Below are positions 5,616-18,867 of a stretch of DNA of 32,000 nt, in pieces. This DNA comes from Novosphingobium sp. GTDB taxonomy: Bacteria > Pseudomonadota > Alphaproteobacteria > Sphingomonadales > Sphingomonadaceae. The DNA lies in assembly GCA_035281095.1 (NCBI GenBank), contig DATEEP010000158.1, forward strand, positions 27,086 to 59,085. The letters are read 5' to 3'. Positions within the stretch are counted from its first letter, which is position 1; each line of letters opens with the position of its first letter. The notes under the pieces are model-generated. The model made no database searches, was not told the DNA's origin, and worked only from the letters and a program-made list of their open reading frames with translations. Made by a program: the position numbers and the translations under genes.

Positions 5616-6674
5616 TCAGCTCCGTACCAGCCGGGTGACATGACCCATCTTGCGCCCCGGCCGCGCCGCCGCCTTGCCGTAGAGGTGCAGGTGGTTGGCC
5701 GGATCGGCGAGGATCTGGGCCCAGTCGTGCGCGGCGTCGCCGATCAGGTTGCGCATCTCCACGCGCGGGGCGGTCAGCGCGGTATCGCCCAGCGGCAACC
5801 CGCAGATGGCGCGTACATGGTTCTCGAACTGCGAGGTCAGCGCGCCCTCGATGGTCCAGTGCCCCGAATTGTGCACGCGCGGGGCCATCTCGTTGAACAC
5901 CGGGCCTCGTTCGGTGGCGAAGAATTCGCATGTCAGCACGCCGACATAGCCGAGTGCTTCGGCGATTCGGGCGGCGAGCGCGCGAGCTTCCTCGACCAAA
6001 GGCGCGATCCGTGCCGAGGCGGGCGCGACGCTCAGCGCCAGGATACCGCTTTCGTGGCGGTTCTCGGGCGTATCCCAGAAAGCGATCTCACCGTCTTCGG
6101 CGCGGCACAGGATCACCGAGAACTCGGCGAAGAAGCCCACGAGCCCCTCGTAGATCAGCGGGGCTCCCGGCAGATCGAGCATGGGCGCATCGGTCGCGGT
6201 CTCGATCCGCCACTGGCCCTTGCCGTCGTAGCCGTCGCGCCGGGTCTTGAGGATACCGGGCGCGCCGATCCGTTCGATCGCGGCGGCAAGATCGGCGGGC
6301 GAATCGACTGCCGCATAGGCCGCGGGCCGGCCGCCGAGACTTTCGACGAAGCGCTTTTCGGCAAGCCGGTCCTGCGCCGCTTCCAGCGCGCGGGGGTGGG
6401 GATGCAGGGGGACATCGCCCAGCGCCGACAAGGGCGCGACGGGCACGTTCTCGAACTCGTACGTCACCACCGCGCACCCGGCGGCGAAGCGGGCGAGGGC
6501 GGCCTCGTCGGTGAATTCGGCGCGGGTGAACTCGGCGCTCACTTCGGCGGCGACACTGTCCGCCTCGGGCGCGAGGACGTGGCAGCGGTAGCCGAGCTGG
6601 GCCGCCGCTACCGCGATCATCCGGCCCAGTTGGCCGCCGCCAAGGATGCCGATCGTTTCGCCGGGGGGAATCAT
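5616..6674 (-). CDS. purK: 5-(carboxyamino)imidazole ribonucleotide synthase (N5-CAIR synthase)
   Basis: ATP-grasp protein with N-terminal IGILGGGQLGRM. The start is trimmed to ATG 6674 (MIPPGETIG..), which has GAGG 8 nt upstream. Confidence 0.92.
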   Translation of the reverse strand: MIPPGETIGILGGGQLGRMIAVAAAQLGYRCHVLAPEADSVAAEVSAEFTRAEFTDEAALARFAAGCAVVTYEFENVPVAPLSALGDVPLHPHPRALEAAQDRLAEKRFVESLGGRPAAYAAVDSPADLAAAIERIGAPGILKTRRDGYDGKGQWRIETATDAPMLDLPGAPLIYEGLVGFFAEFSVILCRAEDGEIAFWDTPENRHESGILALSVAPASARIAPLVEEARALAARIAEALGYVGVLTCEFFATERGPVFNEMAPRVHNSGHWTIEGALTSQFENHVRAICGLPLGDTALTAPRVEMRNLIGDAAHDWAQILADPANHLHLYGKAAARPGRKMGHVTRLVRS

Positions 6675-6685
6675 ATCATCACCCT

Positions 6686-6910
6686 CGTCATTGCGAGGGA
6701 CCATGGGTCCCGAAGCAATCCAGGGCGATCTAGAGTGATTTCGAGGCAGGTGGAATCACCTGCCGGCTCGGAAATCACGGCAGACAAAGGATATGCGGCC
6801 TCGTTCCGGTTCAATCTGAAACGGAACGAGTCTAGGCGGCCCTGGATTGCTTCGCTCAGTTCATCCTGAGCGGCTGTTGCAAACAGCCAGCCGAAGGGCT
6901 CGCAATGACG
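6686..6910. repeat. Composite palindromic repeat element (MITE/REP-like) between purE and purK
   Basis: A short terminal unit cgtcattgcgagg..gaagcaatccaggg (6686-6725) and an inverted longer unit gccctggattgcttcgc..ctcgcaatgacg (6839-6910) flank a core. The core has hairpins at 6735-6778 and 6800-6830. A homologous copy lies at 24436-24668. Confidence 0.85.
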
Positions 6911-6935
6911 AATCATGAGGCCGGCACTCTTCGAA

Positions 6936-7433
6936 TCAGGAGGGTCGCTCGGCGACGCTGGCGGTCTGCTCGGCGCGGAAGGTCTTGAGCCGCTCGGCCA
7001 AAGCCTCGTCGGCGGTGGCGAGGATCGCGGCGGCGAGCAGGCCCGCGTTCTTCGCCCCCGCCTCGCCGATTGCCAGCGTGCCGACGGGAATGCCGGCGGG
7101 CATCTGCACGATCGACAGCAGGCTGTCCTGCCCCGACAGCGCCTTGGACTGCACCGGCACGCCCAGCACCGGCAAGTGCGTCATCGACGCGACCATGCCC
7201 GGCAAGTGCGCCGCGCCGCCCGCCCCGGCGATCACCACCTTGAAGCCCTGATCCGCCGCGCCTTGCGCGAACGCGACAAGCCGCTCGGGCGTGCGGTGCG
7301 CCGAGACGATGCGCGCGTCGTAGGCCACGCCCAGCTTCTCGAGCATCTCGGCCGCGCCCTGCATCGTCGGCCAGTCGGACTGGCTGCCCATGACGATTGC
7401 GACCGGCGGAGCGCCCGAAATGCCTGAGGTCAT
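6936..7433 (-). CDS. purE: N5-carboxyaminoimidazole ribonucleotide mutase
   Basis: Motifs [14 protein letters not shown] and SAHRTPERL. The start is trimmed to ATG 7433, 1 nt after the gpmA stop. Confidence 0.93.
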
Positions 7434-8451: not shown

Positions 8452-8526
8452 GCTGCTGTAGCTCAGTGGTAGAGCGCACCCTTGGTAAGGGTGAGGTCGG
8501 GAGTTCAATCCTCCCCAGCAGCACCA
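8452..8526 (+). tRNA. tRNA-Thr (anticodon GGU), CCA encoded
   Basis: Hand-folded cloverleaf. The acceptor stem is GCTGCTG/CAGCAGC, the D stem GCTC/GAGC, and the anticodon stem CACCC/GGGTG. The anticodon loop is TTGGTAA. The T stem is GGGAG/CTCCC with loop TTCAATC, followed by discriminator A and CCA. Confidence 0.95.
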
Positions 8527-8528
8527 TT
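8482..8528. repeat. attL (3-prime part of tRNA-Thr from the anticodon loop, plus 2 nt)
   Basis: ttggtaagggtgaggtcgggagttcaatcctccccagcagcaccatt is identical to 18821-18867. Confidence 0.95.
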
Positions 8529-8613
8529 ATTTCCATATAAATCAAACATTTAACAACTTTGCTGGGCGAGGCTTTTTGGTTCGGGTAACGCCTCGGGTAA
8601 CTACGCCGCAGCG

Positions 8614-9567
8614 TTACCCGGCGTGCGCTGCAAGCCAGTTCGTGAGTCCTGCATCGACGGCGTGTTCTGCGAGGGTAAGGCAATCCCATAGGTGGACGGG
8701 CCGGGTGCAGTTACCGCTACGTGGCGCTACCGTGCCGGTGTGGTAGACTATAAAGAACCGGCTGCCGACTGTACTCGCCGCGAATGCCGCGACGCACTCG
8801 TCGGCAACCGATTGATTGATGGCGGACTTGACCTGCACGCTGATGATCTCGCGCGTGATGGGCTGTTCCAGCAGCAGGTCGATGTCCTTCATCGTTCCGC
8901 CTACTTCGGAGAGGCGGCGCCATCCGGCACCGGAAAAGATGAGATCGACGAGCAGTTCGAAGTCGCGCCAATGCAGGTCGCGGATGATGTCGGCGCTCGC
9001 TTCGATGAGTGCCCGCCGATGGATGCCCAGCGCGATGGCATTGGCCTCGCGTTCGCCGTTGATTCGCCGAACCGCATAATCGACGTGCTTCACCGCGCAG
9101 ATGGAACGCCGATAGGCGGCAAGCTGCGTGAGCTTGGTGCTGAGGCTGTTCTGGTCCAGCTTAATGCCGAAGCGGTCCACATTGCGCCAAGGGCCGATGG
9201 TGCGGCGAAATGCGGCGGGCTCGGTGAGGTCGGCAACGCCGGGGATCGCCTGCGCAGGCTCACTGAAGGCCCACCACATCTGTCCGAACGCGAAAGTGAT
9301 CCACAAAGTGTCGGAACCAAGGGTGAAAAAGTCCTGTAATTCGCGCAAGGTGCCGGTGGCGGTTGCCCTGTTCGCATAATAGTCCCGGTAGCGTTGCTCG
9401 GCCGTATCCCAGTCGCCTGCTGCGGCTTCCTCCACGGGGTCCTCGTTGTTGCTCCAGTATATAAGGCCTTCGTCGAGCGAGCGTCTTTCCCACGCTCCCC
9501 CGCGCCCCAGCTTGATGTAGCGCGTCTGCGCGGGCTGGATCGGATCGAACAGCGGCGTGGCGCTCAT
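8614..9567 (-). CDS. Mrr-type (PD-(D/E)xK) restriction-endonuclease-domain protein with an unrecognised ~200-aa N-terminal region
   Basis: The C-terminal WRDFELLVDLIFSGAGWRRLSEVGGTMKDIDLLLEQPITREIISVQVKS fits the Mrr catalytic pattern (FE..l....G......D.GiD......QxK). Start at ATG 9567 or GTG 9573. Confidence 0.7.
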   Translation of the reverse strand: MSATPLFDPIQPAQTRYIKLGRGGAWERRSLDEGLIYWSNNEDPVEEAAAGDWDTAEQRYRDYYANRATATGTLRELQDFFTLGSDTLWITFAFGQMWWAFSEPAQAIPGVADLTEPAAFRRTIGPWRNVDRFGIKLDQNSLSTKLTQLAAYRRSICAVKHVDYAVRRINGEREANAIALGIHRRALIEASADIIRDLHWRDFELLVDLIFSGAGWRRLSEVGGTMKDIDLLLEQPITREIISVQVKSAINQSVADECVAAFAASTVGSRFFIVYHTGTVAPRSGNCTRPVHLWDCLTLAEHAVDAGLTNWLAAHAG

Positions 9568-9828
9568 GCCCACGAACCGTCATTGTGGTTGGCGGTCGCC
9601 TCCCCACCAATCGCATTTCCTGCTTGCATCGTCGCCCCCAGCAGGGCGCGACGTTGTCTTCGGGCTTTCTCGTCGCGCCTATGTCCACTCGGGGCGACGG
9701 CCGAAGCCGGATGTTGGAAACCTACTTAGCATAGGCGCATGCGCCTTTACCGTTGCCGGCTGGACATGCGCGCATGCCACCCGGCCTCCAGAATCTGGCG
9801 ACCGAGTTGCTAAGCAGGGGTTTCCACG

Positions 9829-9859
9829 CCCCACCTCCCGGCTTTCACGGGAGGCGGGG
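9829..9859 (-). terminator. GC-rich hairpin downstream of the island operon (terminator-like, no U-tract)
   Basis: ccccacctcccg (9829-9840) pairs with cgggaggcgggg (9848-9859): 12 bp with one G-U on the minus-strand transcript and a 7-nt loop. It lies about 80 nt after the stop at 9938. Confidence 0.3.
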
Positions 9860-9937
9860 GCAGATTGCTCGATGGGCGACGGATTACAAGCGCAATGTAG
9901 GGCGGCTAGTTCGTGTGCTTGCCCAACCAGCTACAGT

Positions 9938-10321
9938 TCAATGGACTGCCTCTGCCCGCCACGCATCCCGTTGCGCCACCTCCAGCATCGCGGACTGGAA
10001 GCCGAGCGCGATGCACTGCTCGCGCGTGGCGAGTTGCCGGGCTGCGTGGCTGGACACGCGCGGGTCCAGCGCGTCCACCCAGACGGTGCGGCCGTTGTAG
10101 CCGTAGCCCAGGTAGCCGAAGAACGCCGCCAGTTCGGACGGCGACACGCCGTACAGCTTGGCGAAGTCGAGACACGACTTGATGGTGGGCCAGCGCTCCG
10201 GCAGCGTCAGCAGGGCGTGTTCGCGGCAGGCCCGGTGCGCGGCGCGCATCAGCGGCGGGAACAGGCCAGCGTAGCCGTCAAATAGCCGCTCCGCCGCCGT
10301 TAGTTCGTCCGCCTCGGTCAC
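9938..10321 (-). CDS. Hypothetical protein (127 aa), last gene of the island operon
   Basis: GTG start at 10321 overlaps the upstream stop (GTGA). Coding-like composition. No motif recognised. Confidence 0.55.
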   Translation of the reverse strand: MTEADELTAAERLFDGYAGLFPPLMRAAHRACREHALLTLPERWPTIKSCLDFAKLYGVSPSELAAFFGYLGYGYNGRTVWVDALDPRVSSHAARQLATREQCIALGFQSAMLEVAQRDAWRAEAVH

Positions 10322-10707
10322 GACCCGATCCCGCCGCGCCCGTGGGCGCGCTGGCCGTACTCGACAACCCGCGCCGCCTCGCAGGCGTGCGTCAGGTGCT
10401 GCAGCGGCTTGTCCTGCGTCAGGCCCTTCACCAGCGCCTGTTCGGGCGTGGTGCGGTAATCCTTCGCCAGTTCATCGGCGCGGCGGAACATGGCCTCTTC
10501 GTACACGTGCGAGCCGTAGGCAGGCTTGTCGTTGCGCTCGACCACGGCGGTGGCGCTCTTCAGGATGGCGGTGTCGTTCATGTCGGGTACTCCTTGTGCT
10601 GACTTGATGAGGACGCAGATCGCCCCCGCTTGCGCGGGGTTGTCCACGCTGCTGATCTCGTTGAGCTTGAGATTGGTGACGCGGTAGCGCTTGCCGGGGA
10701 TGGTCAC
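10318..10707 (-). CDS. Hypothetical protein; the N-terminal 42 aa carry a prohead-protease-like strand motif
   Basis: GTG at 10707 overlaps the upstream stop (GTGA). An alternative ATG at 10581 (MNDTAILK..) has a strong AAGGAG 7 nt upstream. The motif is LKLNEISSVDNPAQAGA. The long 317-aa track version is rejected. Confidence 0.5.
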   Translation of the reverse strand: MTIPGKRYRVTNLKLNEISSVDNPAQAGAICVLIKSAQGVPDMNDTAILKSATAVVERNDKPAYGSHVYEEAMFRRADELAKDYRTTPEQALVKGLTQDKPLQHLTHACEAARVVEYGQRAHGRGGIGS

Positions 10708-11087
10708 GCGCGGGCCTCCTCGATCGGCACGACCTTGTTGCTGAAGTCCAGCGCGGACGTGTGGTTGATGAAGTCGACGAAGGGCATCATCTGCGTCGGC
10801 GCGACACGGACACAGAGCGCGCGGGCCAGCACCGGTGCCTCGGCCACCACCTCCTTCGCGACGACGAAGGCGAACATACGTTCGCGGGCGCGGCGAAGAT
10901 CGTCGAGCGCGAGTTGCTCGGCCTGCACGTCCGACCGGTACAGCTTGTCGTTGGCGTCGCGGATCGCGTCCAGCGCGGCTTCCGCCTCCCGGATTGCGGC
11001 GACGAAGTCGCGGGCGGCGCGTTCGCGTTCGCCCACGGCGTCCATCCGCTCGCGTTCGATGCGCTTGCGCTTCAGGCTTCCGAGCAT
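10704..11087 (-). CDS. Hypothetical coiled-coil-like protein (127 aa)
   Basis: ATG at 11087 (MLGSLKRKRIERER..) with GGAG upstream. It overlaps the end of the upstream gene by 16 nt. The charged, Ala-rich sequence suggests helices. Confidence 0.5.
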   Translation of the reverse strand: MLGSLKRKRIERERMDAVGERERAARDFVAAIREAEAALDAIRDANDKLYRSDVQAEQLALDDLRRARERMFAFVVAKEVVAEAPVLARALCVRVAPTQMMPFVDFINHTSALDFSNKVVPIEEARA

Positions 11088-11476
11088 TCGGGCTTCTCCA
11101 TTGATAAATCGGACGTCGACCACTGGGCCGGATCGACGCGGCGGCGCACGTCGTCGATGATGTCGGCCGCACGTTCTTCACTGAACCCGGCGCGGACCAA
11201 GTCGCCGGTTTGCAGGGTCCAGAAGTCGGCGAAGAAGACCGGGCCGTTCCGCTCGCGTTCGGCGCGCTCAAGGTCCAACCGGTCTTTCAGCGTCTCCGGC
11301 GGACGGACGCCGCGCAGCAGGTCGTCCAGCCGGGACAGGCTCTCGATACTGCCTTTCGGCGGATGCACCTCGGGGCTGCGCAGCAACGCAAGGCGCAACG
11401 TGCGGCGGGCGTCCGGCCCCATGAGCTGGAAGCCGACGGCGAGGGCTAGGTTGTCGAGCGCGGTGTCAGGTGTCAT
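11072..11476 (-). CDS. Hypothetical protein (134 aa)
   Basis: ATG at 11476 overlaps the TerS-like gene end by 11 nt. No motif recognised. Confidence 0.5.
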   Translation of the reverse strand: MTPDTALDNLALAVGFQLMGPDARRTLRLALLRSPEVHPPKGSIESLSRLDDLLRGVRPPETLKDRLDLERAERERNGPVFFADFWTLQTGDLVRAGFSEERAADIIDDVRRRVDPAQWSTSDLSMEKPECSEA

Positions 11477-11975
11477 CGGCCGCCTTCCCGTCGATCAAGG
11501 TCAGGGCCGGGGGGCGCACACTGCCCATCAGGCGCATGGCGACGGAGGTCACGGCCTCGCCCAGCACACCGGCATCGACGTCGTGGGTGACGCGCTTGTT
11601 CAGCACCAGACCGGCGGTGTCACGGTAGCCGGGCAACATAGCGCGGGCGCGAAGCTCAAGCAGGCGGTCGCTGTAACGGCGGATGGTGCCGACGACCTGC
11701 TCGCGGTACTTGCCGCCGAACACGGGCTCGTCGTAGCCCTCCACGGCGCGGCGGTAGATTTCGTGGTCTATCTCGGCGCGTGCCGTGTCCAGCGCCTCCT
11801 CCCACGCGTCGGCAAAGGCGGGATCGCGCTGGCGCTCGTCTTTGAAGGTGCTGGCGGCACCGCCCGGACTGCCGGGAGAGGCGGCCCGAGCGGCGCGCGC
11901 TACGATGCCGTGGCGTGCCAATTCGGCTAAGAACGCTGCCTTACGCGCAGCCGAGAGAGGAACACCGTTCGACAT
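11466..11975 (-). CDS. Phage terminase small-subunit-like protein
   Basis: The layout FLAELARHG..ARAARAA..RDPAFADAWEEALDTARAEIDHEIYRRAVEGYDEPVFGG..VGTIRRYSDRLLELRARAMLP matches the alphaproteobacterial prophage TerS-like family as I recall it. The HTH segment looks degenerate. Confidence 0.6.
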   Translation of the reverse strand: MSNGVPLSAARKAAFLAELARHGIVARAARAASPGSPGGAASTFKDERQRDPAFADAWEEALDTARAEIDHEIYRRAVEGYDEPVFGGKYREQVVGTIRRYSDRLLELRARAMLPGYRDTAGLVLNKRVTHDVDAGVLGEAVTSVAMRLMGSVRPPALTLIDGKAADDT

Positions 11976-12511
11976 GCCCCAGAGTATAGCTGGCGACCGG
12001 CCGAAGGCAGACGGTTAAGGCTTGAGCTATCCCCTCGGAGCCTAGAGAATCGGCCAATTCGTCACCGAATCGCTTTCATCAACCTCAGCGTCGCCAGAAT
12101 ATTGCCGCGAATTGCAACGGAATTGTGGAAAAATACTTTTGGGGGAAAAGAACGCCATCGGCCCCTTGCGCACAAGGCGGGTGCCGGATTTCCTGCGAGT
12201 CTGTGCATCATTGCAGGCCAGCCAGAAAATTTCCAGCCGATTTACCCACACTATCCACAGGTTGATCCCCCGTATTCCGGCTTGCGCAACCGGGTTCGGG
12301 CATTCACCATGATGGAGGTTTGCGGGTTTCAGTTCATACTGAATGGCGCTTAACCACGGAAATGGGGAGGTCACCATAGGCGGCCTCCCCATCCCGAACA
12401 GAACGTGGCCCCTGTTACGGGTGCGCGATCCTGCCCTGTGTGCAACCCATGCCTAGCATGGATCAGACGGGACGCAAAGATTGTCGGGCCACCCTCTTAC
12501 GAGGTTTGAAC

Positions 12512-12637
12512 ATGCCCAAGGTCAGTATCCCGCCGGGGAAGCGCGTGATTTGGCGTGCTTGGATCACGGTCAAGGGACGCAGGGTCTACGCGAATGAGCG
12601 TGGACTTCGTGCGTTCCCGGTTCTCGTGGACGAATAA
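12512..12637 (+). CDS. Tiny basic ORF (41 aa)
   Basis: ATG 12512 with GAGG 8 nt upstream; MPKVSIPPGKRVIWRAWITVKGRRVYANERGLRAFPVLVDE. The longer GTG version at 12440 is less likely. Confidence 0.35.
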   Translation: MPKVSIPPGKRVIWRAWITVKGRRVYANERGLRAFPVLVDE

Positions 12638-12732
12638 GCCGATCACCGCCCCCGCCTTTCATTGCACATGGAGGACGGGGGCACTTCCCGGCTGCTGATC
12701 TAGACATGTCTCTGGTCAGGAAAGGACAAGGT

Positions 12733-12867
12733 ATGGCTGATAAAAAGACGCCGACGCAAACTTCCCACCGCAGTTCGCGGACGGGACAGTTTGTGACCGA
12801 GCGCTACGCCAAGACGCATCCGAACACGACCGAACGGGAACGCATCAAGCATCCCGAGCGGAAGTAA
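12733..12867 (+). CDS. Tiny ORF (44 aa), conserved-looking ..GQFVTERYAKTHPNTTERE.. motif
   Basis: ATG 12733 is preceded by GGAAAGGA. MADKKTPTQTSHRSSRTGQFVTERYAKTHPNTTERERIKHPERK. A stem-loop follows immediately. It is below the ORF-track length cutoff. Confidence 0.5.
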   Translation: MADKKTPTQTSHRSSRTGQFVTERYAKTHPNTTERERIKHPERK

Positions 12868-12874
12868 ATGGGGC

Positions 12875-12904
12875 GAGGCTCCCGGTTAGCCGGGGGCCTC
12901 GTTT
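12875..12904 (+). terminator. Rho-independent-type terminator after the 44-aa ORF
   Basis: gaggctcccgg / ccgggggcctc forms an 11-bp stem (one G-U) with loop ttag, followed by gttt. Confidence 0.5.
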
Positions 12905-13104
12905 CGGCGAACAGCGGCGCGCCGGTGCAGAAATTACCCCTCGCATTACCCGGTGGACTGCTCGTTGCCCATAAAGCCACGTTGCCCAGCCATCTTCGGG
13001 ACCAGAGCCCAGCCTAGCAGAGGCCCGGCTATCGGGTCGGTGCCGCGCGCCCGCGCGCGAGGGCGGGGCGGAACGGCCGGACGATCCTGCGCTACCCAAC
13101 AGGG

Positions 13105-13355
13105 CGATCCTCCCCCGATCCCCCACCGAACCCCCAGAGGGGGGTCGGCTGGAACCCAACAATTCCGCCATTTCCCGACACCGAACCTCCCCGAACCCCC
13201 TCTTTTCTATAAAGGAGAGTAAGGAGTGGCACGGCTAGCGCCCTGCTTAAGCGCTCCCGGGGCCTCTAATGCAAATGGGGGGATCGGGGGGGATCGGGGG
13301 GTTCGGCCAGCGGAAATGCTAGGAAATCTTGGGCGGGAGCCGATCCTCCCCTCGG
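13105..13355. repeat. Iteron-like array: C-run units on the left and G-run units on the right of an AT-rich core
   Basis: The left arm is cgatcctcccccgatcccccaccgaaccccc (13105-13135) and ccgaacctccccgaaccccc (13181-13200). The AT-rich core tcttttctataaagg sits at 13201-13215. The right arm is ggggggatcgggggggatcggggggttcgg (13277-13306) and ccgatcctcccctcgg (13340-13355). Confidence 0.6.
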
Positions 13356-13526
13356 CCACGGACTATGGACCGCCCCCCCTCCCTTCCATCGGCACCGCCG
13401 TGGGAATCTGGCGATGGCGCCTCGCGCCGACAATGCGGAAGTTACACCCGAGAAATCCGCTTTAGGTTTCGGAAAGCGCCGCGAGGGCAAAATCACTGAA
13501 GGTCAAAATTTCTACGGAGACAGACG

Positions 13527-14042
13527 TTGGGTATCATGGGTTGGAGCGTGGCTTTGATTGCAGCTTCCGCGATTTCGGCAACAGTCGGGTCAATGATCAC
13601 GTCGCACGCTATGAACAATGATTTCCAAAAAATGCAGGAAACCTTACAAAAACGTGAAAAATTCATAAAATCGAGGGAGGAAGTTGGAGCATGCCTGACA
13701 TTTTACTATACGCGAAGCCCTCTAGCGGACGCCATTCATGAGCACGCAAACGGCAGAACTGAACTGCTTCGAGTTCCGATAGGTGTCGAAGAGAACCTAG
13801 TGGAATGGTCCGTACCCGGCCTCAGCAAAAGCAAAACCGCTAACGTCCGAAAAAATTTTCCGGTTGGGCCGTATAACCACGTGACCATTGAGGGTATCAT
13901 AGCCCCTCTATCGATTGCACCTGAAGGACGTCCGTACTGCGATCAAGAGTTGTACGCGTGGGACTATAACGTCGCGATGCTGCATTTACTCGGTCGGACC
14001 TCGGAGATCGTGCCGCGTAGTATCAGCCCAGAGCTGCGCTGA
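13527..14042 (+). CDS. Orphan membrane-anchored protein (171 aa), AT-richer than its surroundings
   Basis: TTG start at 13527 with GGAGA 6 nt upstream. An N-terminal hydrophobic helix (WSVALIAASAISATVGSMI) precedes a ~140-aa domain with no recognised motif. It is on the opposite strand to the rest of the island. Confidence 0.6.
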   Translation: MGIMGWSVALIAASAISATVGSMITSHAMNNDFQKMQETLQKREKFIKSREEVGACLTFYYTRSPLADAIHEHANGRTELLRVPIGVEENLVEWSVPGLSKSKTANVRKNFPVGPYNHVTIEGIIAPLSIAPEGRPYCDQELYAWDYNVAMLHLLGRTSEIVPRSISPELR

Positions 14043-14120
14043 AACCGTTGTATCGCATCGGCCCGATTGCAAACATCTTGATTTCAAGGGCCGACTGCAC
14101 CCCACAACAAAGCTACCGCG

Positions 14121-16346
14121 CTAATACGGCTCATCCCCCCGCCCATCGTCCACCACGATCATATGCAACCGCTCCTCTCCGGTCCCGCGAACATAAGCCC
14201 ATTCCTGCGGTCCGCCGTCGAAACGCAGCTTCTTCCGTTCAAAGCCCAGCTCGCGCATGGCATCGCCCAGCCGGGCGTTCTGGTCCTGCGTTTGCATGCC
14301 CTTCGGGATGCGCAGGATGCGCCACACGGCCGTGCTGCTTATCTTGCCGTTCTGCTCGCCGATGGCTTCGGCAATCGAAACGACGAAGGGGTCTTCGATC
14401 CGGCGGGCATCCTGCTCGCTCTCCGCCGCGCCCCACAGGCCTTCGTCGAGACGTATACTCGCGCCCGTTGCCTCCCGTACCGCCGCCTCTGCCCATAGCT
14501 GGTCCACATCGCGCCGTAGTGCCGTCAGGTCAAACCCCTCCACCTTCACCGGCCAGAACCGCCGGTTGCCGGTCAGGTCGCGCAGATACTGTTCGCTGTT
14601 CGTGGTGCCGAAGATCACGCACTGCCGGGGCGCGATAACGGGCAGGCGGGCGTACGACATTCGCGCTGTGTCCTGCTGGCGGGAGAGGAACCCCTTAAGG
14701 TGCTCCACCTCGCCTTTGCGCATGCCCTTCAACTCGGCGGCTTCCGCGATCCAGCGGCCAGACAGCCGCTCGATCACCACCTTGCTCTCCGCATTCAGGG
14801 GCAAATCGTCGATAAACCATTCGTCCCGCGCGGCCAGGACGCGAAGCGCAGACGACTTGTTCGTGCCCTGCTTGCTCTCCATCACCAGCATCTCGTCGAA
14901 CTTCACGCCCGGCTGGCGCACCCGGCGCACTGCCGCGACCAGCATCAACGATCCGACGGCGCGGGAGTAAGGCGTGTCGTCCGCGCCGCCATAGGCCGAT
15001 AGCCAGCCGTCGATCCGGGGAACGCCGTCCCACACCAGCCCGTCCAGAAAGTCGCGCACAGGATGGAAGGCAGAACGCCGGGCCGTATCGACTACCACCC
15101 TCACGAAGAAATCGAACGTGGGCCGGAAGCGATACCGGTCGTCGATTTCGAGCCAGAGGCGATTAAGCGCGGGATCATCGAGATATGGGCCGCAAGCTTC
15201 CAGCCCCGCAACAAGCGCCCGGTCCGCGAATAGATCGTGCCGGACGGCAACCTGCATTTTCGACATGGCCAGCCGGATGTTGTGCTGGTTGGGGTAGGGT
15301 ACGCCGTTCTTGTCGGTCTCGAACGGCTCCCCCTCCGCTTCCACCGCCTGCCGTGCGCGCTCCACCTGTCGCCACGCGTATTCGATATGGTTCTTCTGGA
15401 CGCGGATGTGGGCCGAGATGCCCCACGCGGCGTCGGTAAGGATGCCGACGATCAGCCCATCGGGCACCTTGCGCCGTACCAACTCGCAGCAGACCGCATA
15501 AACGACCTTCGAGCGGTCTCCGTCGAAATCCTCGGGGTTGTGCCCCTGCACGATCAACATGCGGCAGCGGCTGTCCTCGCCGATGCCCCACTGTTTGAGT
15601 TCGTCGATGTCGTCGAGCGGTCGGACATCGCCGCGCGGGATCGGTACACGGGTTATCCCGTCCGCCTTCGTCGGCGCATCGGCAGGCGCGCATCTAAACG
15701 CGCTCAAGGGATAGATGCGGTCGGGATGCAGTTCGACGATGGCAGTCGGGCGGGCAGGGCGGCCTGCATCCCGCTTCTTCTTGTTGGGCAAGTTCACGCT
15801 GCCGGGCAGCCGAAGCAGGCGGTCCACGTTATGCGTGCCCTCGTCCGCATCGAAGTCGATACGCAGTGCGCGTGCGCGTTCTTCTATGTCTACGACGCGC
15901 TCTTCCGCGCCACCAAGAAAGAACGGTTCGTCCAGCTTCCAGATAAGGTGCAGGCCGTTGCCGGAGCGGATTATGGCGGAGGGCGCAGGCGAGTGTGCCT
16001 GTTCGCGCAGTTCGGCCAGCTTGGTGTCCAGCCAGACGTCGATCTGTTCGGGCGGGAAGTCCTTTGGCGGGTCCAGATCGACATGCAGGTGGCAGGTCTC
16101 GACGAGGTCGGCCTTCTTGGGCTTCTGGTCTACGCCTTTCTGCTGGGCGGCGACGGTGTAGTACATGCCGTTCTGCCCGGAATGTTCCGCGACAAGCGCG
16201 CGCACGTCAGCGGCGGTGTTCGCCCAATACGTGGGCGTGCCGGTCTTCCAGTCCGGGTCCGAAACGGTAATCGGCCAAGGACCGCCGGGGCGCAGCCACT
16301 CCAAGAACTCGACGGCTGCCTCTGCATCCGTGCGGGGTTCGCTCAT
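14121..16346 (-). CDS. Primase-polymerase (AEP) fused to a VirE-type P-loop NTPase
   Basis: The N-terminal AEP motifs are HLHVDLD (DxD), SGNGLHLIW (sGxGxH) and LRLPGSVN. The C-terminal half resembles the virulence-associated protein E family: ..MLVMESKQGTNKSSAL.. (P-loop region) and RWIAEAAEL (Walker B-like). Confidence 0.88.
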   Translation of the reverse strand: MSEPRTDAEAAVEFLEWLRPGGPWPITVSDPDWKTGTPTYWANTAADVRALVAEHSGQNGMYYTVAAQQKGVDQKPKKADLVETCHLHVDLDPPKDFPPEQIDVWLDTKLAELREQAHSPAPSAIIRSGNGLHLIWKLDEPFFLGGAEERVVDIEERARALRIDFDADEGTHNVDRLLRLPGSVNLPNKKKRDAGRPARPTAIVELHPDRIYPLSAFRCAPADAPTKADGITRVPIPRGDVRPLDDIDELKQWGIGEDSRCRMLIVQGHNPEDFDGDRSKVVYAVCCELVRRKVPDGLIVGILTDAAWGISAHIRVQKNHIEYAWRQVERARQAVEAEGEPFETDKNGVPYPNQHNIRLAMSKMQVAVRHDLFADRALVAGLEACGPYLDDPALNRLWLEIDDRYRFRPTFDFFVRVVVDTARRSAFHPVRDFLDGLVWDGVPRIDGWLSAYGGADDTPYSRAVGSLMLVAAVRRVRQPGVKFDEMLVMESKQGTNKSSALRVLAARDEWFIDDLPLNAESKVVIERLSGRWIAEAAELKGMRKGEVEHLKGFLSRQQDTARMSYARLPVIAPRQCVIFGTTNSEQYLRDLTGNRRFWPVKVEGFDLTALRRDVDQLWAEAAVREATGASIRLDEGLWGAAESEQDARRIEDPFVVSIAEAIGEQNGKISSTAVWRILRIPKGMQTQDQNARLGDAMRELGFERKKLRFDGGPQEWAYVRGTGEERLHMIVVDDGRGDEPY

Positions 16347-16533: not shown

Positions 16534-16731
16534 TCAGGCGGCCTCGCGGGCCGCCGCTCTCTCGCCAACCCAGCCCAGCACCTCCGAGCGCAGCCATGCG
16601 ACCTTGTTCGGGCCGAGATGCAACTGCTTCGGGAAGCGGCCTTCGCGAATCATCTGGTAAATGTGGACCTTCGAGAAGCCGATAAGTTGTTCGACTTCCT
16701 TCATGGTCATGAGCCGGTCGTCCGGGTCCAT
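16534..16731 (-). CDS. alpA: AlpA-family excisionase / transcriptional regulator
   Basis: MTMKEVEQLIGFSKVHIYQMIREGRFPKQLHLGPNKVAWLRSEVLGWV matches the AlpA HTH pattern. AAGGA lies upstream of the ATG at 16731. Confidence 0.85.
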   Translation of the reverse strand: MDPDDRLMTMKEVEQLIGFSKVHIYQMIREGRFPKQLHLGPNKVAWLRSEVLGWVGERAAAREAA

Positions 16732-16814: not shown

Positions 16815-17369
16815 CTATTTCGCTCTTTTCTTTCGCGTCGGCAGTTCATTTCGGGCGTTGAGTTCGCGGAGATAGCTGTCGGCTCGTCGTTCGGCCGTTG
16901 CACGATCTTGACCGAACACGTCGGGGAACAGCCTGACGAGGTGGAAGCCAACAAATCGGCACGCTGGGTGGGGAGCCTTGCCCTCGCTCTCGCGGTGCGC
17001 ACGATTGCCCACCTCGGCTGGGCCATTATCTTCGACGAAGATCGCGAACAGTTCGCGAACCGCAGCTTTCACCGGCCACACCTCAGGCCGCTCTCCCTGT
17101 TTTCCCAAACTTTCCGACAGCAATGCTTGTGCTGCTAAACTTGGATCAAAGGCAGCGGGTTCTTCTTTGTTGTGCTGGTTCGAGAGCTCACATTGGATCC
17201 ACCATTTCGCCTCGGGCTCAAGTGCTTCCCAAGCGGCAACGAACTTGGCGACACCCTTTGTTTCAGCCTTTCGACGATGGTGCAGGAAGGAAAGATCGAC
17301 ACTCGCGCCGTCGATGGCGCTCCGGACCCGTTCCTCTGCCTCTGGCGTCAGTTCCACAGCTTCCCCCAC
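16815..17369 (-). CDS. Hypothetical protein (184 aa) between int and alpA
   Basis: Uninterrupted ORF on the island's main strand with somewhat lower GC. It overlaps the integrase end by 22 nt. No motif recognised. Confidence 0.5.
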   Translation of the reverse strand: MGEAVELTPEAEERVRSAIDGASVDLSFLHHRRKAETKGVAKFVAAWEALEPEAKWWIQCELSNQHNKEEPAAFDPSLAAQALLSESLGKQGERPEVWPVKAAVRELFAIFVEDNGPAEVGNRAHRESEGKAPHPACRFVGFHLVRLFPDVFGQDRATAERRADSYLRELNARNELPTRKKRAK

Positions 17370-18658
17370 GTCTCCAGCGCTGCGCGCTTCTCGTCCAGAT
17401 AGCTGTAGCGGTTATAGGTGCCCGCCACACCCTGCACCACGTGGCCAAGCACGCGCTCTATGTGTTCCTGTTGCACGCCCAGCCGGGCCATGTGCGTGGC
17501 GACGGAGCGGCGGATGTCGTGTACGGTCCAGTTGGGCACGGCGGCCAGTTCGATGCCCTCTGCTGCGGCTTTCGCCGCCTGCTCCTCGATCAATTCGTCA
17601 ATTCGGGACTTCGCCTTCGAAAACCCGCTCACGGGGCGCACGCCGCTGGTGGTGGAGAACATGCAGTCGCCGCCGTTCCAGTTGGGCAGGGACTGGACAA
17701 GCGACCACGCCGGGGCCGACAGCGGGAAGATGTGCGGGCGCTTCGTCTTGTAGCGCGACGAAGGTATCTCGACGGTGCGCTGCTCCGCGTCGATCCATCC
17801 GCGTTCCAGCTCCGCGATCTCGGAGCGGCGCTGGCCGGTCAGGATCAACATTTGGTACATCGGGCCGAAGGGATAGCCGAACTTGACGGCGGCGTCCTAG
17901 ATGCGGCGCAATTCGTCCATCGACAGCACGCGCTCGCGCGGGGCGTAGCCCAACTCGGGCCGTCGCATGCCCGCCAGCGGACTGGCTGGCAGGTGTCCGC
18001 GATCCGCTGCCCAGTTGAACATCTTGGTCAGGTGCTTGCGCAGTTCGCGGGCGAGGGCTGGTCCGCGCCGCGTAACGACGTCGTCGAGCAAGTCGTGCAC
18101 CTCCGCGCGACTGATCGTCTCGACCAGTCGGCCTCGCCAGATCGGGAGGGCGTGGTCGGTGATGAGTCGTTCGGCGGGAACGCGGCCGAGCTTGCCGTTC
18201 GGTCCCTTGGGCGTGGCCTCGGCCTTGCCCTCCTGCGCGTCCGCAAGCAGCTTGGCGCGGTCGCGGGCGAAGCGCCCGTCTTTCGTGTTGGGCTTCACGT
18301 GCAGTTCCACGAAGCGGTCCAGCACGGCCTCGAAAGAGCGGGAGGCCTCCGCGCTTCGCTTCTCGGCGCGCAGATCGCGGGCGTCCTTGCCCCGGTCGGC
18401 CGGTTCGAGCACTGCCTTCGCCGCTTCCCGCGCGGCGGTCAGGCCCATCAGCGGGTATTCGCCAACCTTGAGCCGGATCAGCTTGCCGCGCGTGCCGTTG
18501 TCGCCGGCACCGGCAAGGCGGTACATCACGTACCACGACTTGCGCCCTCTCTCCGTGACCCGGAGCGTCAGCCCGGAGAGATAGGTGTCGTGCACCTCGT
18601 AACGGTCGGCCTTTGGGGCATATTTCTCGACGCCCAAATCGGTCAGTCTGGCTTGCAT
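17348..18658 (-). pseudogene. int: Tyrosine integrase (P4-like, DUF4102-type arm-binding N-terminus) interrupted by one in-frame TAG
   Basis: Track ORFs 17897..18658 and 17348..17860 share one frame, and the only stop between them is TAG at 17897-17899. The catalytic residues are present downstream (TGQRRSE, HDIRRS, LGH, YNRYSY). Confidence 0.85.
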
Positions 18659-18820: not shown

Positions 18821-18867
18821 TTGGTAAGGGTGAGGTCGGGAGTTCAATCCTCCCCAGCAGCACCATT
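18821..18867. repeat. attR (duplicate of the tRNA-Thr 3-prime part)
   Basis: 47/47 identity with 8482-8528. There is no 5-prime tRNA half upstream of it. Confidence 0.95.

Follow-up and report, generated by a model that had tools for sequence, protein, structure and literature searches.

The stretch of DNA considered here comprises 32,000 nucleotides of a Novosphingobium sp. contig (DATEEP010000158.1) and is referred to below as the window. On its minus strand, at 8614–9567 (stop codon counted), lies a gene encoding a nuclease of 317 aa, which is the final gene of an island integrated at a tRNA-Thr gene and which is discussed here as a candidate anti-phage restriction enzyme. The open reading frame (ORF) starts with an ATG at 9567 and ends with a stop codon at 8614–8616, and a GTG at 9573, two codons 5' of the ATG, offers an alternative start. 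Its translation is identical to the deposited protein HKX80101.1, which comes from a metagenome-assembled genome (MAG) and is labelled 'restriction endonuclease [Novosphingobium sp.]', and it contains all four peptide strings quoted in an earlier note on this DNA, made from the letters alone. The protein has hundreds of full-length relatives, and 8614–9567 is a real gene and no chance ORF. The GC content of the gene region is 0.60, compared with 0.67–0.69 in the flanking chromosome. The earlier note had also placed the gene at the end of the island, near the attachment (att) site and with its own upstream region of ~360 bp, and these features are borne out: it is the last gene, with the integrase at the opposite end of the island, 85 bp separate its stop codon from the tRNA-proximal copy of the 47-bp att repeat (8482–8528), and the non-coding region upstream of it (9568–9937, minus strand) measures 370 bp.

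The two domains of the nuclease

The C-terminal domain (residues 195–301; 8665–8985, minus strand) is a PD-(D/E)xK nuclease domain of the Mrr_cat type. It matches Pfam PF04471 with 30.6 bits against a curated cutoff of 21 (E 3.8e-7), as do all 70 homologues of an alignment whose members are 40–66% identical to the query (70/70; best E 9.7e-11). The Mrr-type PD-QxK active site that had been read from the letters is also what the alignment gives, since the catalytic residues E204 (within FE), D230, Q245 and K247 are invariant in the 70 sequences and at least 97% conserved across 113; conservation of the active site among homologues was a point on which the earlier proposal depended. In the DNA the four codons are read on the minus strand at 8956–8958 (E204), 8878–8880 (D230), 8833–8835 (Q245) and 8827–8829 (K247). 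The motif of Mrr itself was reportedly described by Bujnicki and Rychlewski in 2001 as an unusual D...QxK variant of the active site, the form found in this protein.

The AlphaFold2 model of the full-length protein, built from the same alignment, has a predicted local distance difference test (pLDDT) score of 93.2 and a predicted template modelling (pTM) score of 0.80. It consists of an N-terminal domain (~1–172), a single long helix (175–196) and the C-terminal domain, so that the linker between the two domains corresponds to residues ~176–196 (8980–9042, minus strand). The C-terminal domain of the model has the alpha-beta-beta-beta-alpha-beta core of restriction-endonuclease-like nucleases, with helices at 200–213 and 252–264 and strands at 231–234, 241–250 and 270–278. 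A Foldseek search of the PDB with the full model gave weak scores, every E being above 1e-3, and the local matches of the C-terminal domain are all PD-(D/E)xK nucleases: NucS, Bax1, EndoMS, BbvCI, FokI and Hjc. For NucS (2vld), Bax1 (6p4w) and EndoMS (5gke) the Foldseek probability is 0.90–0.98, at E values that also exceed 1e-3.

On the strength of its sequence, the protein is assigned to the Mrr_cat nuclease family and placed outside Mrr proper, because it has no Mrr_N domain; none of the 70 members matches Mrr_N, even when E values of up to 10 are admitted. Escherichia coli Mrr is likewise a single polypeptide of the Mrr_cat domain family and has no NTPase, but it carries an N-terminal winged-helix DNA-binding domain (Mrr_N), where the present protein has a domain of 175 residues with a PUA-like predicted fold. 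The protein is a single NTPase-free chain of two domains joined by one helix, with no other Pfam domain; Pfam searches of the 70 members brought up neither an NTPase nor a STAND, CARF/SAVED or any other signalling module.

The N-terminal domain (residues 1–175; 9043–9567, minus strand), delimited by the alignment and the fold model, has sixteen residues that are invariant in the 70 sequences: R16, Y17, K19, L20, G21, W26, W89, T91, W98 and W99, followed by R121, W127, S143, L146, T147 and C157. In addition, position 38 holds an aromatic residue. Both domains are under strong constraint, and the invariant Trp, Arg and Lys residues of the N-terminal domain would suit a site that binds nucleic acid or an aromatic cage. 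The earlier note could not name this domain, and at the level of sequence it stays nameless: it has no match in Pfam (E ≤ 10, 70 members), NCBIfam, PHROGs or PADLOC, and phmmer and profile hmmsearch against the PDB returned chance matches to Tri2 and Gfh1 only. By hhalign it does not match a single YTHDF2 sequence, and against a YTH profile of 121 sequences the probability is 0.4%, the sole local match being GGWRxTDxxGxxL against IWCSTEHGNKRLD.

The predicted fold does allow a name to be proposed. Modelled alone, the domain reaches a pLDDT of 93.6 and a pTM of 0.89, and its elements follow the order beta1-alpha1-beta2-three alpha helices-beta3-beta4-beta5-alpha-beta6-alpha. This order agrees with that of the PUA-like superfamily of modified-base readers, which takes in the YTH, EVE and ASCH domains. 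Among the top eight Foldseek matches in the PDB there are six YTH structures (of YTHDF2, MRB1 and YTHDC2) and the EVE protein 2gbs, with E values of 0.012–0.26, probabilities of up to 0.92 and template modelling (TM) scores of 0.40–0.49; beyond the top eight the probability falls below 0.1, and no SRA structure is among the listed fold matches. In a library of viral structures (BFVD), the named proteins that match best have an ASCH domain (E 0.018) or an EVE domain. The top entry of that library, A0A8S5NVT7, an uncharacterised protein of 336 aa from Myoviridae sp. ctEBR14 (E 1.3e-6, TM 0.69, 10% identity), surpasses all other structural matches by a wide margin and is probably a remote relative, so that the N-terminal domain would reach past the family that sequence searches detect and into at least one phage. 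The domain is tentatively named a PUA-like (YTH/EVE/ASCH-like) reader, a name that the models support with moderate confidence.

The carrier island and its interchangeable slot

The island is delimited by two identical (100%) 47-bp direct repeats on the plus strand, one of which (8482–8528) is the 3' 47 bp of the tRNA-Thr (GGT) gene that served as integration target (8452–8526, plus strand), while the other, distal copy lies at 18,821–18,867. The repeats are 10,339 bp apart and enclose an island of ~10.3 kb. All its assigned genes lie on the minus strand, beginning at the distal end with a tyrosine integrase (17,348–18,658), which is followed by an AlpA-like excisionase or regulator (16,534–16,731; phrog_2790, E 4e-14), a VapE-type primase/helicase (14,121–16,346; PF05272, E 1.4e-67) and the small terminase subunit TerS (11,466–11,975; phrog_4044, E 3.5e-30). 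Downstream of terS there are conserved backbone ORFs (9938–11,476), namely orf134 (11,072–11,476), orf210 (~10,318–10,950) and orf127 (9938–10,321). The PHROG scan of the island detected no capsid, tail or lysis gene and no match to a structural family; of the remaining backbone ORFs only one has PHROG matches, to families of unknown function. Because of the 47-bp repeats, the tRNA-Thr gene, the integrase, AlpA, VapE and TerS, the island is classified, from its gene content, as a satellite resembling the phage-inducible chromosomal islands (PICIs), whose gene set this is (PMC10085698, PMC6092414). One in-frame stop codon, at 17,897–17,899 between DELRRI and DAAVKFG, splits the integrase where its relatives have Trp, and intact relatives in sister islands measure 443–462 aa; the stop codon may mean that the island has been immobilised, or it may be an assembly error in the MAG. 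A scan of viral contigs with the primase of the island found nothing.

Some further observations concern the rest of the island. The product of orf210 (10,318–10,950, minus strand), which contains NLKLNEISSVDNPAQAG, matches only PHROGs without a function (phrog_24785, E 1.8e-5) and is conserved in sister islands at 36–63% identity. Between terS and the VapE primase (12,035–14,139) there is a second variable segment of low GC content (0.56–0.58), without homology to sister islands, whose small ORFs (12,042–12,392, 12,845–13,171 and 13,527–14,042) match no family; this segment may hold further cargo or have a regulatory role. As for the region upstream of the nuclease, no sigma-70-like promoter was detected by a promoter scan of 9568–9937, and the Rfam scan returned the tRNA only. 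A GC-rich hairpin at 9829–9859 (CCCCACCTCCCG..CGGGAGGCGGGG), with 12-nt arms that are 92% complementary, lies within the cargo cassette described below, ~80 nt past the stop codon of orf127, with which the upstream operon ends. This hairpin may be the terminator of the terS operon, and the nuclease may therefore be transcribed on its own.

With the VapE primase as query, 505 strong relatives were retrieved, and five related islands (L130–L134) were compared with that of the window. L134 and L131 are collinear with the window island over a stretch that begins with the integrase, includes the TerS operon and ends with orf127; L134 shares, moreover, the tRNA-Thr (GGT) at which it ends and the repeat found there. 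Nucleotide homology to both breaks off at ~9995 and returns at the att site, so that a cassette of 1.45 kb (8545–9995), which takes in the nuclease gene with the upstream region belonging to it and is the sole part of this end of the island without such homology, is the unit of variation. In the same slot, L134 carries a DpdB-like gene with a DndB domain (PADLOC 7e-15), L131 a Ser/Thr kinase that matches mad6 (8.6e-53) and PD-T4-6 (2.9e-43), and L132 an unknown gene of 378 aa. Outside the slot, L133 encodes TmtA of Tiamat (1502 bits) and L130 a Dsr1-like SIR2 protein (1.3e-55); L130 also has a NOV_C nuclease. Because defence genes occupy the same slot and are present in related islands, the location is strong evidence that the nuclease is defence cargo. 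More generally, the int-alpA-VapE-terS satellite family was seen to carry defence genes in Alphaproteobacteria.

Family distribution and the neighbourhoods of homologues

A word-index search returned 372 relatives of the nuclease, and nearly all among the matches listed are 305–335 aa long with a query coverage of 95–100%. A HMMER scan with residues 1–190 alone extended the family to at least 645 clusters at 50% identity. In almost all of these relatives the domain stands at the N-terminus of a protein of ~315 aa, and the longer ones that were examined retain Mrr_cat, for which reason the two domains form an essentially obligate pair. One relative has an additional AIG2/GGACT-like domain at its N-terminus, and fusion of the N-terminal domain to an alternative effector was found in none of 150 listed relatives.

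Members of the family are present in 205 of 185,579 species genomes, mostly of Alphaproteobacteria, the other hosts being Gammaproteobacteria and Betaproteobacteria, Planctomycetes, Chloroflexi, Acidobacteria and Polyangiaceae. This patchy distribution is typical of horizontal transfer. No member was found in 50,697 phage records, and the 2.9 million contigs of IMG/VR gave two weak partial matches only. Plasmids, 116 in number and mostly large ones of Klebsiella, carry family members annotated as 'hypothetical protein'; a homologue of ~36% identity (WP_094645205, WP_004026570) is widespread on large plasmids of Klebsiella, Raoultella and Enterobacter, and a literature search for the accessions of two homologues found no publication. 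On the Klebsiella pneumoniae plasmid pC39-334kb (L088), the homologue (6276–7193) adjoins a TerD/TerY/VWA/PP2C/kinase cluster.

The clustering of neighbouring genes over 84 loci of the family bears on the earlier claim that the gene has no methyltransferase or other partner beside it. For the window the claim stands: tblastn with the family partners found no methyltransferase, helix-turn-helix (HTH) partner or other family-associated gene anywhere in the 32 kb, and the HTH, ParB-methyltransferase, large terminase (TerL) and serine-recombinase partners were each looked for there and are absent. Across the family it does not hold. In 32–34 of the 84 loci (34 by gene clusters, 32 by the per-locus map) the nuclease is preceded, usually within ~125 bp, by a small HTH_XRE gene in divergent orientation, and a ParB_N-N6_N4 DNA methyltransferase is nearby in 48, which leaves 36 loci that resemble the window in having no such methyltransferase close to the nuclease.

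Many of the loci with the methyltransferase are embedded in a compact element of ~8 kb, which consists of a large serine recombinase, DUF2924, DUF3489, the ParB_N-N6/N4 methyltransferase, DUF5681 and TerL, with no capsid or tail structural genes. An example is found at 9.6–18.0 kb of locus L006, and similar ones in L001, L005, L010, L013, L038 and L083. This TerL/ParB-methyltransferase element looks like an undescribed satellite-like element of Alphaproteobacteria; the literature on DUF2924 and DUF3489 yielded only papers on Wolbachia phage WO and gene transfer agents or one that surveys domains without a known function, and a scan of viral contigs with TerL gave distant phage terminases only. 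Within the element the nuclease often directly adjoins TerL. In an independent metagenome sample of 80 ParB-methyltransferase loci, DUF5681 is present in 66, TerL in 21 and the serine recombinase in 15, and the nuclease in 0, so that the nuclease was rejected as a core gene of this element. The methyltransferase shares its orientation with DUF5681 and TerL, and the data indicate that it belongs to the packaging module of the carrier and is no obligate partner of the nuclease; as it occurs in 80/80 loci that are free of the nuclease, the link between the two genes runs via the shared carrier and not via an operon.

The element may also have an exchangeable cargo slot linked to the HTH gene. Two loci with the HTH gene and no nuclease were noted: in L138 (12,069–17,413) a Dna2/Upf1-like helicase of 1111 aa lies ~1.8 kb from the HTH gene, and in L176 (4125–5272) an unknown protein of 298 aa is divergently adjacent to it. 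Outside this carrier, the neighbours of the nuclease in 30 loci include MADS, PD-T4-6, Mokosh, a methyltransferase of restriction–modification (R-M) systems and conjugation genes, and one of these neighbourhoods is another VapE island, in Asticcacaulis. The family rides three kinds of mobile element, and the earlier expectation that homologues would be found in islands and defence neighbourhoods agrees with their presence on mobile elements and in defence contexts.

Proposed function and competing explanations

The function put forward here, which is held to have about an even chance of being right, is that of a stand-alone, NTP-independent restriction nuclease with a PUA-like reader, which would be modification-dependent and would serve as interchangeable defence cargo of the satellite. 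The Mrr-type PD-QxK domain, through E204, D230, Q245 and K247, would cut DNA, while the divergent PUA-like domain would read a modified base, its most likely target, in invading DNA. Recognition of the base would license or position cleavage, as in Type IV enzymes or the Type IIM enzymes MspJI or VcaM4I, and the host together with its island would be shielded from phages whose DNA bears the modification. Modification dependence, the modification itself and an anti-phage phenotype are thus what we infer from the domain architecture, the conserved catalytic residues, the cargo position and the defence genes in the slot of sister islands, all four of which are observed.

The proposal has precedents among known enzymes. 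Hosford et al. reportedly described in 2020 an N-terminal YTH-like reader of N6-methyladenine (m6A) in the DNA for the archaeal McrB of Thermococcus gammatolerans, a Type IV precedent. As with that reader, YTH is the best fold match here, but in archaeal McrB the reader is joined to a GTPase motor dependent on the nuclease McrC, whereas the one predicted here is fused straight to the nuclease. MspJI, AspBHI and LpnPI (Type IIM/IV) combine an SRA-like reader with a PD-(D/E)xK nuclease. The arrangement of an N-terminal PUA-superfamily reader and a C-terminal PD-(D/E)xK nuclease that works without ATP is shared with this group (PMC6765204), the reader being a predicted one in the present case; the two have no detectable sequence similarity, and the reader here is closest to YTH/EVE/ASCH. 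Fusions of PUA-superfamily readers to HNH or PD-(D/E)XK nucleases have been experimentally shown to be modification-dependent restriction enzymes (PMC6765204). Of these, VcaM4I, TspA15I and YenY4I (EVE/PUA-HNH and EVE-DUF3427-PD-(D/E)XK) restrict phage DNA that contains 5-hydroxymethylcytosine or 5-methylcytosine (Lutz et al. 2019, PMC6765204; PMC7897488). They have the order predicted here, with a PUA-like sensor at the N-terminus and the nuclease at the C-terminus; their nuclease is however of the HNH or the DUF3883-type PD-(D/E)XK kind instead of Mrr_cat, and their readers, unlike the present one, are recognisable by sequence. The END nucleases (PMC12191111) were considered as a further parallel and rejected, their sensor being an inactive EndoIII. 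By analogy, the protein may work like the modification-dependent nucleases with PUA readers and may be a member of that group. With its Mrr-type nuclease fused to a reader-like domain, and with its place in the swappable slot of the satellite, it is a credible new anti-phage restriction enzyme.

Several points weigh against this proposal. The fold evidence for the N-terminal domain is weak, with TM scores below 0.5, E values of 0.012 or more and no signal from sequence or profile searches. None of the defence HMMs of PADLOC-DB v2.0.0 (2023) matches the protein (0 families at E ≤ 1). Finally, the ParB_N-N6_N4 methyltransferase lies within a few kb (~3 kb) of the nuclease in 57% of the loci, whereas methyltransferases are seldom found close to the ORFs of VcaM4I and other published modification-dependent enzymes of the PUA type (PMC6765204).

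The first competing explanation is that the protein is an abortive, infection-triggered sensor-nuclease, whose N-terminal domain would sense a phage protein, RNA, single-stranded DNA or a small molecule and thereby release a non-specific Mrr nuclease that degrades the DNA of both phage and host. The context of mobile elements and hotspots is the same, the PUA-like assignment is weak, RNA is another ligand of YTH, EVE and ASCH domains (PMC11090510), and the divergent HTH_XRE gene in 32–34 of the 84 loci fits the tight control of a toxic effector. This explanation is nevertheless unlikely, as every one of the best named fold matches is a base reader, the protein lacks the NTPase, STAND, CARF/SAVED and other signalling modules searched for, and the copy in the window is tolerated without an HTH partner. 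Modification dependence is preferred to an infection trigger because the fold of the N-terminal domain comes closest to PUA-like readers of modified bases.

It is also conceivable, at a probability that is smaller again, that the nuclease serves the life-style of its mobile elements, by interfering with a helper phage or with competitors or by processing DNA for packaging, like NixI of the phage-inducible chromosomal island-like elements (PLEs) or terminase-associated HNH nucleases. In that sense, both main carriers have terminase genes (TerS here; TerL with DUF5681 elsewhere) and no capsid or tail genes, and TerL is often the direct neighbour of the nuclease. Yet the nuclease is a core gene of neither carrier: it is missing from every one of the 80 sampled ParB-methyltransferase/DUF5681/TerL loci, sister PICI-like islands hold other genes in its slot, and it is found by itself on plasmids of Klebsiella and at chromosomal sites free of terminase.

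Improbable to a higher degree is a Type II-like enzyme of the classical kind, with unmodified DNA as its substrate and protection provided by the ParB-N6/N4 methyltransferase of the carrier or by one of the host, such as CcrM. The methyltransferase within ~3 kb in 48 of the 84 loci and the 'restriction endonuclease' label at NCBI speak for it, and the small upstream HTH genes resemble the controller proteins of R-M systems. Such a methyltransferase is, however, not found near the other 36 loci, the window copy or the plasmid copies, and where it occurs it sits in the DUF5681/TerL packaging module; all 80 sampled loci have the methyltransferase but no nuclease. That the gene is an inactive or decaying passenger of a degenerating island, its selected function lost in this genome, is the least probable explanation and hardly to be believed, since the in-frame stop codon of the integrase and the origin from a MAG, which favour it, stand against a full-length ORF (317 aa, with a family mode of 310–320 aa) that keeps every invariant residue of both domains.

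A broader version of the proposed modification-dependent restriction is more speculative and, as a whole, rather doubtful. It holds that the N-terminal domain forms a new clade of PUA-like readers, that the protein represents a new single-gene class of Type IV enzymes spread by three types of mobile element, among them the apparently undescribed TerL/ParB-methyltransferase/serine-recombinase element, and that its target is a modification installed by phages. The trigger would then be a modification of phage making, for example methylation by a ParB-type methyltransferase of the phage or a hypermodified base, so that the anti-restriction device of the phage would itself set off restriction.

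If the proposed function is confirmed, a reader domain that sequence searches do not see would join the known modification sensors and could serve as a reagent for mapping DNA modifications, and the family, of which there are at least 645 clusters at 50% identity, would count as a new family of single-gene defences that current defence-finder models have missed. The compact terminase-bearing element that holds most family members would deserve a description of its own, possibly as a new type of satellite, and the carriers, that is, the PICI-like family with its terminal slot and the TerL/ParB-methyltransferase/serine-recombinase element, may equal the gene in interest. Defence hotspots of phage satellites are known from P4-like elements and PICIs (Rousset et al. 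2022, PMC9122126). The present island resembles them as a satellite with integrase, AlpA and primase, in which a variable slot holds different anti-phage genes in related elements; it differs in its Sphingomonadales host, in the combination of a VapE primase with a TerS operon in tRNA-Thr and in a slot that is distal to the integrase. The alphaproteobacterial PICI-like satellites would then have a swappable defence slot, as the enterobacterial P4 and PICI do.

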